Shown: piece by piece, positions 49,021 through 51,244 of the stretch
Layout: every line of letters begins with the position of its first letter
Position numbering within the stretch: the first letter of the stretch is position 1
Virus record (IMG/VR): IMGVR_UViG_2541047950_000002
Span: 1-51,620 of that record
Length of the DNA stretch: 51,620 bases
Reading direction: 5' to 3' (one strand)
Source: a virus
Lineage: Duplodnaviria; Heunggongvirae; Uroviricota; Caudoviricetes
Program-made: the position numbers and the translations under genes
Notes under the pieces: model-generated
What the model was told of the DNA's origin: nothing
What the model saw: only the letters and a program-made list of their open reading frames with translations
Databases searched by the model: none

Positions 49021-50118
49021 TCAAGAGGTCTTATTTCTGCTCCTTTGGAGCTCTTCAAAACGATTATGTAAAGATTTCGGATACAGTTCGGTATATACCT
49101 GCCATAGCACGTTTAATGAACGATGCCCTGTAACCTGGGCGACTTCCTCAATACTAAAACCAGCCTCAAATAAGCGACTTGCCCCTTCTCTACGCAAATC
49201 ATGGTATCGCAGATCTTTAATACCTAATTTGCTTCTTACCCTCTGGAATCCCGCAGTAACAGAAGTGCTGTTATATGGAAAAATGAATTCTGATTTTTTG
49301 GGTTGTCGTTGGACGATATCCCAGGCTTCCCCAAGCAAGGCTACTTTCATATGGTTGCCTTCCTTTTTACGTGGATCTTTCCTGTCTCTTACGAGTATGG
49401 ATTTTTGTTCCTGATCGAGATCCTCCCATCGTAATCGGCATACTTCACCGATTCGCATACATGACCACACAGAAAATTTGAGGATATCAACGAACGGAAT
49501 TTTTGAGCATTTATGTGTAGATCGTTGTTGAAGACCTTCAATGAGCATGTCCAGTTCATCAGATGCCGGTCTACGATTACGACGATTTGATTTACCAATT
49601 AAACCAAGTTTAAGTAGATATGGACGAGCGGCTTTTGCTGGGTTTGATGTGTAATTAATTCCATATACAGGTTTGGCAGCATCCAGAACACTGCCAAGAT
49701 AACTAACATCGTGGCTAACTGTAGCTGGACCTGCACCAGCGTTGTTTCTTAGCCTGCAATGTTCAATTACGTCATTTTCTGTCAGTTCAGATAGTTTGAT
49801 CGCGGAGATGTCACTATCCATAAGCAGTTCCAGCACATATCTTTTAGTACGGCCTGCTTTACCTCCGGCATTTGGGTCATTTAAATATTTGTGTAGTAAG
49901 TCACGGACTGTAAGTCCGTCAACTGCATTTGATGATGGAATGCCATATAGATCTAATTCCATCACTTTCTGTGTGCCCCATGTTTTGGCATGAGCATGTT
50001 TAGGGAATGTTTTGCTTTCCCTGTAAGTGATAACACCTTTTTCTTTGATAATCACATTACAGCGATAGCGTGGTGTGCCATCGGATTTTAGTCGTTTCTC
50101 TATGTTATAGTACGCCAT
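49021..50118 (-). CDS. int: tyrosine integrase, dusA-associated
   Basis: 365 aa; C-terminal catalytic region (R..HDLRR...G.S, LGH and Y) typical of tyrosine recombinases; divergently adjacent to the dusA 5' end. Confidence 0.85.
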   Translation of the reverse strand: MAYYNIEKRLKSDGTPRYRCNVIIKEKGVITYRESKTFPKHAHAKTWGTQKVMELDLYGIPSSNAVDGLTVRDLLHKYLNDPNAGGKAGRTKRYVLELLMDSDISAIKLSELTENDVIEHCRLRNNAGAGPATVSHDVSYLGSVLDAAKPVYGINYTSNPAKAARPYLLKLGLIGKSNRRNRRPASDELDMLIEGLQQRSTHKCSKIPFVDILKFSVWSCMRIGEVCRLRWEDLDQEQKSILVRDRKDPRKKEGNHMKVALLGEAWDIVQRQPKKSEFIFPYNSTSVTAGFQRVRSKLGIKDLRYHDLRREGASRLFEAGFSIEEVAQVTGHRSLNVLWQVYTELYPKSLHNRFEELQRSRNKTS

Positions 50119-50206
50119 TACACGACCTCGTTATTTCGGGTTCCCATAAAACGTGGGAACCTGTGCGGGAACCTAACGCGAGAAAAATAGCCTGAAATGT
50201 TCAAAA

Positions 50207-51244
50207 ATGCACGATAATCATGAAACACAAAAAATTAATCAAACCAGCGTGATGCCTGAAAAAACTGGTGTTTACTGGAATTCTCGGTTTAGCATTGCTC
50301 CTATGCTTGACTGGACGGACAGACATTGCCGTTATTTCCTGCGTCTGCTTTCCCGCAATACGTTGCTGTATACCGAAATGGTGACCACAGGGGCGATTAT
50401 TCACGGTAAAGGTGATTACCTGGCGTACAGTGAAGAAGAACATCCGGTAGCGTTGCAACTCGGGGGTAGCGATCCGGCGGCGCTGGCACAGTGTGCGAAG
50501 CTGGCAGAAGCGCGCGGATATGATGAGATCAACCTGAATGTCGGCTGCCCGTCTGACCGGGTGCAGAACGGCATGTTTGGTGCGTGTCTGATGGGTAATG
50601 CGCAGCTGGTTGCCGACTGCGTGAAAGCGATGCGCGATGTGGTGTCGATTCCGGTGACGGTGAAAACGCGTATTGGCATCGATGATCAGGACAGCTATGA
50701 ATTTCTCTGCGATTTCATCAACACCGTTTCCGGCAAAGGTGAGTGTGAGATGTTCATCATCCACGCACGTAAAGCCTGGCTTTCTGGGTTAAGTCCGAAA
50801 GAAAACCGTGAGATCCCGCCGCTCGATTATCCGCGTGTGTATCAACTGAAGCGTGACTTTCCGCATCTGACGATGTCGATTAACGGTGGTATCAAGTCGC
50901 TGGAAGAAGCTAAAGCGCATTTGCAACATATGGATGGCGTGATGGTCGGGCGCGAGGCGTATCAGAATCCGGGTATTCTGGCGGCGGTAGACCGAGAGAT
51001 TTTTGGTTCCTCGGATACTGATGCTGATCCGGTGGCGGTAGTGCGCGCCATGTATCCGTACATTGAGCGTGAACTCAGCCAGGGTACGTATCTCGGCCAT
51101 ATTACCCGGCATATGCTGGGCTTGTTCCAGGGTATTCCTGGCGCGCGGCAGTGGCGGCGTTATTTAAGTGAAAATGCCCATAAAGCGGGTGCAGACATTA
51201 ATGTGCTGGAACACGCGCTCAAACTGGTGGCGGATAAGCGTTAA
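50207..51244 (+). CDS. dusA: tRNA-dihydrouridine synthase A (alternative start at 50252)
   Basis: 345-aa ORF with clear similarity to E. coli DusA ([24 protein letters not shown]); followed by pspG as in the E. coli chromosome. Confidence 0.9.

Follow-up and report, generated by a model that had tools for sequence, protein, structure and literature searches.

The window analysed here is the whole 51,620-nt stretch of IMG/VR record IMGVR_UViG_2541047950_000002, which derives from a tailed virus (Caudoviricetes). Its right end carries two divergent genes, the tyrosine integrase gene int and the dihydrouridine synthase gene dusA, which are separated by an 88-bp spacer (50119-50206; Table 1). The int product (365 aa) contains the Pfam Phage_integrase domain (PF00589) at residues 189-346 (E 1e-20), and the dusA product (345 aa) matches the Dus family (E 8e-105). 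These coordinates and domain matches bear out the divergent arrangement described in an earlier note made from the sequence alone. A DinI-like gene lies between the tail-fibre genes and int, and the order tail fibre, dinI, int and phage attachment site (attP) is that of phage mEp460. With high confidence, the region is the right attachment site (attR) of a lambdoid prophage inserted about 100 nt into dusA by a dusA-associated integrase (DAI). The same joint explanation, at equal confidence, makes this prophage a mosaic that lacks Shiga toxin (stx) genes and is related both to the Stx2d phage 1720a-02 and to mEp460.

The DAI family was defined by Farrugia 2015 (PMC4482086), who showed that the elements excise as circles, described 21-bp semi-conserved att repeats and the replacement of the dusA 5′ end, and found that 64% of the islands carry a prtN homologue. 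The integrase protein (Int) of the window is 100% identical to that of 1720a-02, and its identity to the mEp460 protein is 98.4%. Over 93-94% of its length, it is 34-35% identical to the Ints of Burkholderia phages AH2 and BcepMigl and Pseudomonas phage H66. The Ints of mEp460, AH2, BcepMigl and H66 are named as DAI hits in phage genomes (Farrugia 2015, PMC4482086). Residues R222, H306, R309/R310, H332 and Y342 are invariant or at least 90% conserved among 56 homologues and supply the RHRH tetrad together with the tyrosine that serves as nucleophile. A dusA-type core occurs within 420 nt upstream of int in 56 of 78 homologous loci. Five hallmarks of the family given by Farrugia 2015 are found: the recombinase residues, homology to DAIs, an int divergent from the dusA 5′ end, a replaced 5′ end, and att repeats at both junctions, the left junction being read in relatives.

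The host comparison set consisted of 5,426 complete E. coli genomes, all of which match the dusA-pspG part of the window and 733 of which carry int beside dusA. Empty sites are of two types. The B2 type encodes a DusA of 331 aa with zur directly upstream; up to about 50294-50303 it has no relation to the window, and beyond that point the two are 99.2% identical. The K-12/B type encodes a DusA of 345 aa with yjbLM upstream and aligns from 50204 on, with 85% identity over the first 125 nt. The phage-borne replacement 5′ end (PhidusA′) matches 1720a-02 exactly and the left arm of mEp460 attP almost exactly; it is unrelated to the native B2-type 5′ end and 85% identical to the K-12 type. Homology to the empty sites breaks at the att site, as expected from the earlier claim that the integrase element brings a replacement 5′ end.

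The alignment to an empty-site dusA proposed in the earlier note, made here with attP, attL, attR and attB together, locates the crossover at 50303-50310. The last phage-specific base of attR is 50302 and the first host-specific bases are 50311-50312, so the exchange falls within ATGCTTGA. The phage attP reads ...TTGCTCCTA-TGCTCGA-TAGGATG..., the host attB reads ...CCN-A-TGCTYGA-CTGGACGG..., and the attP predicted for the excised prophage contains ...CTCCTATGCTYGATAGGATG.... The att repeats compared are TTGCTCCTATGCTTGACTGGACGGAC in attR and TTGCACCAATGCTCGATAGGATGTAC in attL. The same att site is found in Vibrio, Marinobacter, Pseudomonas and Burkholderia attPs.

In phage 1720a-02, Balasubramanian 2019 (PMC6328086) located the insertion 100 bp into dusA with a 7-base core, mapped attL, attR, attP and attB, named PhidusA′, noted the non-canonical position of int, and found that attP is regenerated in vivo. 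The window crossover, at dusA nucleotides 97-104, agrees with that insertion point, and mEp460 attP contains TCCTA-TGCTCGA-TAGGA, a perfect inverted repeat with 7 bp at its centre, which fits the 7-base core. The right-junction reading is correct, and it concerns a system that is already known and an integrase that is already characterised. Recombination between attP and attB took place within ATGCT(T)GA (50303-50310), and all DNA leftward of the exchange, including the spacer and dusA codons 1-32, is of phage origin. The phage-borne 5′ end would keep dusA in frame and bring a new promoter, as the literature describes, and the spacer is predicted to be where this promoter must lie. The host's own 5′ fragment would have been moved to attL, which in relatives lies some 140 bp outside the window on its left side.

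The displaced fragment is present in related lysogens. Free phage mEp460 has an intact attP between int and two small open reading frames (ORFs); its left half corresponds to window 50119-50310, and its right half to the sequence just left of the first window-type ORF in strain EH41. EH41 matches the first 3 kb of the window at 100% identity and has a prophage that is shorter than the window prophage by about 1 kb. In this strain, annotation gives a dihydrouridine synthase pseudogene for a truncated dusA 5′ end, which stops 143 bp to the left of the equivalent of window base 1, and the 143-bp P′ arm carries GGGAGCC-N4-GGGAACC. A scan of IMG/VR for the core plus the P′ arm returned 54 contigs, comprising five attPs and 49 attL copies, of which 48 are flanked on the left by K-12-type sequence and one by B2-type sequence; the displaced fragment is therefore found at attL in EH41 and 49 IMG/VR contigs. 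The window itself holds no second copy of the core, as a 29-mer search allowing up to three mismatches gave one match only, in line with the earlier observation that nothing dusA-like lies at 538-954. The earlier prediction that attL lies just left of the window is upheld in these relatives, which support a position about 135-141 bp left of window base 1. The predicted attL would consist of the truncated native dusA 5′ end followed by ATGCT(C)GA-TAGGATGTACCG, with GGGAGCC-N4-GGGAACC some 50-60 bp further along. The junction does not show the pattern that the earlier note had named as grounds for doubt, for the 5′ end differs from that of uninterrupted strains and a repeat is present at the far end in relatives.

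The window has T at position 50308, as does another lysogen whose dusA body is B2-like; all 54 IMG/VR attP and attL copies, including the B2-flanked one, have C. With no T-bearing attP or attL among those 54 contigs, the T is taken to be the host (B2-type) allele, which suggests that the exchange occurred in ATGCT (50303-50307). Two observations weigh against this account of the junctions. The attL position comes from relatives, since among the 5,426 E. coli genomes the right end of the window is matched at 97-99% identity at best. In addition, the attR overlap of the window, TGCTTGA, is one base off every attL and attP sampled (TGCTCGA); in lysogens of T-type hosts, this mismatch could lower the efficiency of excision, or the true overlap could lie further left.

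The same mismatch speaks for a rival reading, in which the prophage is a fossil, a fixed remnant that has lost excision, and the junction beside int is only a scar. K-12-type E. coli carry an apparent scar of this kind, and the int reading frame stops after 250 codons at a locus in Escherichia sp. MOD1-EC7003 (L017), whose Int is 99% identical to that of the window. In the window, however, the genes for replication, lysis, head and tail all appear as long open ORFs, as do int, rdfN and the repressor region, and the T allele recurs in another lysogen with the same dusA type. Moreover, the Int is 100% identical to that of an inducible phage that regenerates attP in vivo (1720a-02, PMC6328086). 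A fossil is thus improbable, and an attR of a prophage with its gene set open is preferred.

The spacer contains three copies of the heptamer GGGAACC. A perfect inverted repeat consists of GGTTCCCA (50139-50146) and TGGGAACC (50154-50161) with 7 nt between the arms, and GGGAACCT occurs twice in direct orientation (50155-50162 and 50167-50174), 12 bp apart. The earlier note had reported both the inverted repeat and the third copy, which stand; its interval of six nucleotides does not. In the direction of int, the GAGG ribosome-binding site follows just after the inverted repeat. GGGAACC is not enriched overall (five copies in the window versus 6.4 expected), but none of 2000 mononucleotide shuffles reached a cluster of three within 35 bp. 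A chance origin was rejected on this clustering and on the conservation of the layout across the integrase family. The sole other 7-mer cluster of this kind in the window lies in ORF 9778-10596, where CTGGTTC and its overlapping shifts occur three times within 35 bp (10151-10183); it looks like replication-origin iterons inside a lambda O-like gene.

The layout was compared in attPs rebuilt for mEp460, 1720a-02, a Vibrio tectivirus-like prophage (1F53), Marinobacter AS1, Pseudomonas H66, and Burkholderia BcepMigl and AH2, whose Ints are 34-100% identical; the Vibrio offsets were corrected for a 14-bp att repeat duplicated in the joined record ends. Six attPs with Ints 34-98% identical to that of the window each have a dominant 7-mer by lineage: GGGAACC, GGGGTAC, GGAGCAC, GTAGCAA, GTAGCAA and GTAGCAC. 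In these six, the P-arm copies are paired, mostly at about -137 and -149 from the overlap, and inverted copies lie at -146 to -198 in five. A lineage-specific motif occupies the repeat-2 position (-149) in mEp460, AS1 and BcepMigl as well, and lies within 3 nt of it in Vibrio 1F53 and AH2. The P′ arm contains a tandem pair with an 11-bp period at +50/+61 or +70/+81, which is degenerate in BcepMigl. The mEp460-type attP has five copies, at -165 (inverted), -149, -137, +50 and +61, and its P′ pair is the GGGAGCC-N4-GGGAACC that falls outside the window.

A wider sample consisted of 78 further loci from other species, with Ints 53-99% identical, in which a tandem pair was scored where at least 7 of 9 positions were identical near the int start. 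Such a pair is present in 66 of the 78 loci and in 14 of 1580 shuffled spacers. Its period is 12 bp in 53 of the 66, an inverted copy stands at the same relative position in 24 of the 66, and the median distance between the proximal copy and the core is 138 nt. The motif conforms to TGG(G/T)NNNC(Y), varying by lineage and agreeing among the copies inside one locus.

The motif also varies together with the N-terminal domain of Int. At catalytic-domain identities of 0.55-0.65, 0.65-0.75 and 0.75-0.85, N-domain (residues 1-60) identity is 0.69, 0.71 and 0.85 for the same motif versus 0.49, 0.50 and 0.60 for different motifs. The corresponding values for the core-binding region (residues 70-170) are 0.38 versus 0.38, 0.47 versus 0.45, and 0.69 versus 0.62. 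Among the top 25 motif-associated alignment columns, 13 fall in residues 1-60, compared with 48 of 253 variable columns overall. The AlphaFold model of Int has three domains (predicted local distance difference test score, pLDDT, 87), and it aligns over its full length (358-370 columns) to the full-length lambda Int structures 1z1g and 1z1b at 17-18% sequence identity. The N-domain models form a three-stranded sheet plus helix (strands 2-10, 16-26 and 29-38; helix 41-58; pLDDT 88-94); a fold search with this domain alone gave no specific match.

The GGGAACC repeats are very probably arm-type sites for Int, judging from this comparison of sequences. Of the two roles that the earlier note had offered for them, arm or regulatory sites, the comparative evidence favours the former. 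The three spacer copies would be the P-arm sites and the GGGAGCC/GGGAACC pair outside the window their P′-arm counterpart. The sheet-plus-helix domain of Int would bind these candidate sites, making the enzyme heterobivalent and lambda-like, with an intasome built on roughly 300 bp of attP. Physical linkage could account for part of the covariation of the motif with the N-domain, as the sites are 20-70 nt away from the N-domain coding DNA.

Recombination directionality factor (RDF) sites are commonly tandem repeats in one attP arm, as established for lambda Xis, and the window repeats sit in the P arm. It is conceivable that they bind the PrtN-like protein RdfN or another phage regulator instead of Int, in which case an RDF would bend the P arm for excision. 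RdfN is a predicted DNA-binding protein that is required for excision (Durand 2021, PMC8409611). The motif is, however, also tandem in the P′ arm across the core in six independent attPs (one of them degenerate), a both-arm layout that is usual for Int arm sites but not for RDF sites, and it co-varies with the Int N-domain. Binding by RdfN or another regulator is therefore unlikely compared with binding by Int.

Placed 21 nt upstream of the int start codon and just ahead of the GAGG ribosome-binding site, the inverted repeat GGTTCCCA-N7-TGGGAACC could also act as an operator or as a hairpin in the int 5′-leader RNA, with no role in recombination. At L017, both arms of the inverted repeat have changed together (GGTCCCC/GGGGACC), so that complementarity is kept; the third copy there is still GGGAACC. 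Against a purely regulatory element, the inverted copy accompanies the tandem pair in only 24 of 66 loci whereas nearly all loci have the direct pair, the far side of the core has further copies at a distance of about 200 bp, and no promoter or terminator consensus was found in the spacer. Such an element is an improbable explanation taken alone, and a dual role as arm site and in the autoregulation of int is plausible.

The P-arm array lies between the start of int and that of dusA′, so Int binding would probably autoregulate int. The broader proposal is that DAIs are heterobivalent enzymes whose arm sites are family-wide and shift in sequence with the N-domain, and that Int occupancy couples recombination to int autoregulation and perhaps to host dusA expression. 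Its layout places one tandem pair, usually of 12-bp period and in some cases joined by an inverted copy, at about 137-165 bp to the left of the overlap and another tandem pair at 50-80 bp to the right. Sequence comparison tilts somewhat towards this proposal. Its regulatory step is without sequence support, since the spacer shows no sigma-70 consensus promoter; a scan of 49900-50450 found no promoter or terminator. DAIs have so far been likened mainly to the simple recombinase Rci. Farrugia 2015 (PMC4482086) and Durand 2021 (PMC8409611) describe core repeats only and make no mention of arm sites, and the family-wide conservation of these candidate sites is apparently the only undescribed detail. 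The additions made here are the 8-bp crossover, the predicted position of attL, and the comparative support for a family-wide arm-site architecture.

Table 1. Features of the dusA junction and of the prophage ends (window coordinates).
Feature	Position	Strand	Basis or remark
Two phage ORFs between attP and rdfN	1-537, 734-907 (within 1..907)	+	mEp460 genes 023 and 024 in the same place
rdfN/prtN-like gene, putative RDF, attL-proximal prophage end	955..1263	-	Pfam PF11112 PyocinActivator, E 4e-23
DinI-like gene, tail-fibre genes on one side and int on the other	48711..48959	-	Pfam PF06183, E 5e-20
int, tyrosine integrase of the DAI family, 365 aa	49021..50118	-	PF00589, residues 189-346; protein identity to known Ints
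Coding region of Int N-terminal domain (residues 1-60), candidate arm-binding domain	49939..50118	-	Models; covariation with repeat motif
Candidate P-arm repeat 1 (GGTTCCCA, inverted copy of TGGGAACC)	50139..50146	-	21 nt upstream of int start codon
Candidate P-arm repeat 2 (TGGGAACCT)	50154..50162	+	-149 from overlap
Candidate P-arm repeat 3 (CGGGAACCT)	50166..50174	+	-137 from overlap, 12 bp after repeat 2
Phage-borne replacement dusA 5′ end (PhidusA′), codons 1-32	50207..50302	+	Identical to 1720a-02, near-identical to mEp460 attP left arm
Reconstituted chimeric dusA (345 aa), followed by host pspG	50207..51244	+	Pfam Dus, E 8e-105; annotation of matching genomes
Core-type half-sites TCCTA and CTGGA, flanking the candidate overlap	50299-50303 and 50311-50315	.	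Alignment
attR crossover region ATGCTTGA	50303..50310 (dusA nt 97-104)	.	attP/attL/attR/attB alignment
Candidate 7-bp overlap TGCT(C/T)GA	50304-50310	.	Alignment

Related arrays occur at loci without a dusA target. Int homologues about 52-53% identical, in Klebsiella phage Kp4887-1 (L009/L010) and at L074, L077, L082 and L093, have a tandem TGGGGTGCT beside int and no dusA-type core nearby, and Kp4887-1 has a matching repeat pair in the other arm too. Kp4887-1 and the loci at about 53% identity probably target another gene and retain the same arm-site layout; Kp4887-1 and several of these loci were excluded from distances measured to the core. Other targets are reported for some homologues (Farrugia 2015, PMC4482086).

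At the opposite end of the prophage lies a gene for a PrtN-like protein (PF11112), and a gene of this kind holds the same place in mEp460, across attP from int. In the circular phage, rdfN and int flank attP, so they end up at opposite ends of the prophage. The earlier note was right to place int and the excisionase-like gene at opposite ends, and the same layout had already been described by Durand 2021 (PMC8409611) in IMEVchUSA3, where int and rdfN lie on either side of attP and the element supplies a new dusA promoter. In that study, the PrtN-like RdfN is the sole RDF that the DAI integrase needs, and Int and RdfN suffice for excision. By analogy with this related element, excision of the window prophage would need Int and its own PrtN-like RdfN. 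IMEVchUSA3 (Vibrio cholerae; PMC8409611) thus resembles the window in its dusA target, its replacement of the 5′ end and promoter, and its PrtN-family RDF across attP from int. It differs in being a mobilisable island in which rdfN is under the AcaCD activator of IncC plasmids, whereas the window rdfN ends a lambdoid early-left operon and its expression presumably follows prophage induction.

The two ORFs between attP and rdfN have no Pfam or NCBIfam match. They are oriented against the early-left operon, are followed by a bidirectional terminator-like hairpin at about 926-950, and look like moron-type cargo beside the att site.

Phage 1720a-02 (Phi-stx2dact, KF030445.1) is among the closest known systems. 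Its Int (100%), int-dusA′ spacer, PhidusA′ and three GGGAACC copies are identical to those of the window, its int likewise lies beside the junction, and in the early region it covers 73% of the window's first 25 kb at 97.8% identity. The window differs in having a tRNA Met/Arg/Arg trio with no stx ORF after it, in a morphogenesis half that resembles other lambdoid phages (about 93% identity to PhiR12 phages), and in the ORFs at 1-907, which it has in common with mEp460 instead. Phage mEp460 (JQ182728.1) has the same order of exonuclease, prtN-like gene, two ORFs, attP, int, dinI and side tail fibre, and its attP equals the left part of the window attR joined to the right part of attL. It differs as a free phage with an intact attP that has C in the overlap, and it has 59% of the first 25 kb of the window in common. 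Like lambda Int and its attP (P1, P2, P′1-P′3), the window system has an Int modelled with three domains, repeats in both arms about 50-170 bp from a 7-bp overlap, and a putative RDF for excision. Unlike in lambda, where it adjoins int-xis, attP has int on one side and the RDF gene on the other, and the target is a protein-coding gene that the phage repairs.

The junction as such carries small weight, as dusA is a documented integration hot spot and the integrase has been studied in a Shiga-toxin phage. The right prophage boundary fixed to 8 bp and the predicted left boundary are aids to annotation. A candidate arm-site map for a widespread integrase family would be of use for dusA-targeting integration vectors and for predicting cross-excision. 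The comparison also suggests that laboratory K-12 dusA begins with phage-derived codons.

The K-12 comparison set the interval of E. coli NEBExpress (K-12/B type, L001:869-2591) beside that of EC958 (B2 type, L002:2369-2501), corresponding to window 50204-50303. The two zur-dusA intervals are homologous up to 68 nt past zur and then again from exactly the att site onward. Between these points, the K-12/B type has 1724 bp with yjbL/yjbM (DUF2713) and a dusA 5′ end where the B2 type has 133 bp. The K-12/B dusA 5′ end (protein start MHGNSEMQKINQTSAMPEK...) is 85% identical to PhidusA′. Strains of the K-12/B type look like carriers of a fossil dusA-specific element, and the first 32 or so codons of laboratory K-12 dusA may be phage-derived. 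An integrase remnant upstream of K-12 dusA was too weak to claim, resting on a collinear match of 17 of 20 nt (E 0.37) and a weak tblastn match.

Elsewhere in the prophage, genes for tRNA-Met(CAT), tRNA-Arg(TCG) and tRNA-Arg(TCT) lie downstream of a DNA methylase gene (15237-16295), in the region 16336-18233. This trio is taken here to be that of Stx phages. No ORFs of stxA or stxB size follow it; the tRNA genes are followed instead by ORFs of 143 aa (16757-17188), 111 aa (17651-17986, minus strand) and 660 aa (18233-20215), the last of which would, by its position, be the esterase gene that Stx phages have at this place. The prophage appears to be related to an Stx phage but to lack stx. Near the right end, a very long stretch of collagen-like Gly-X-Y repeats, some 250 residues in all, lies within the tail-fibre ORF at 45971-47560 (529 aa).

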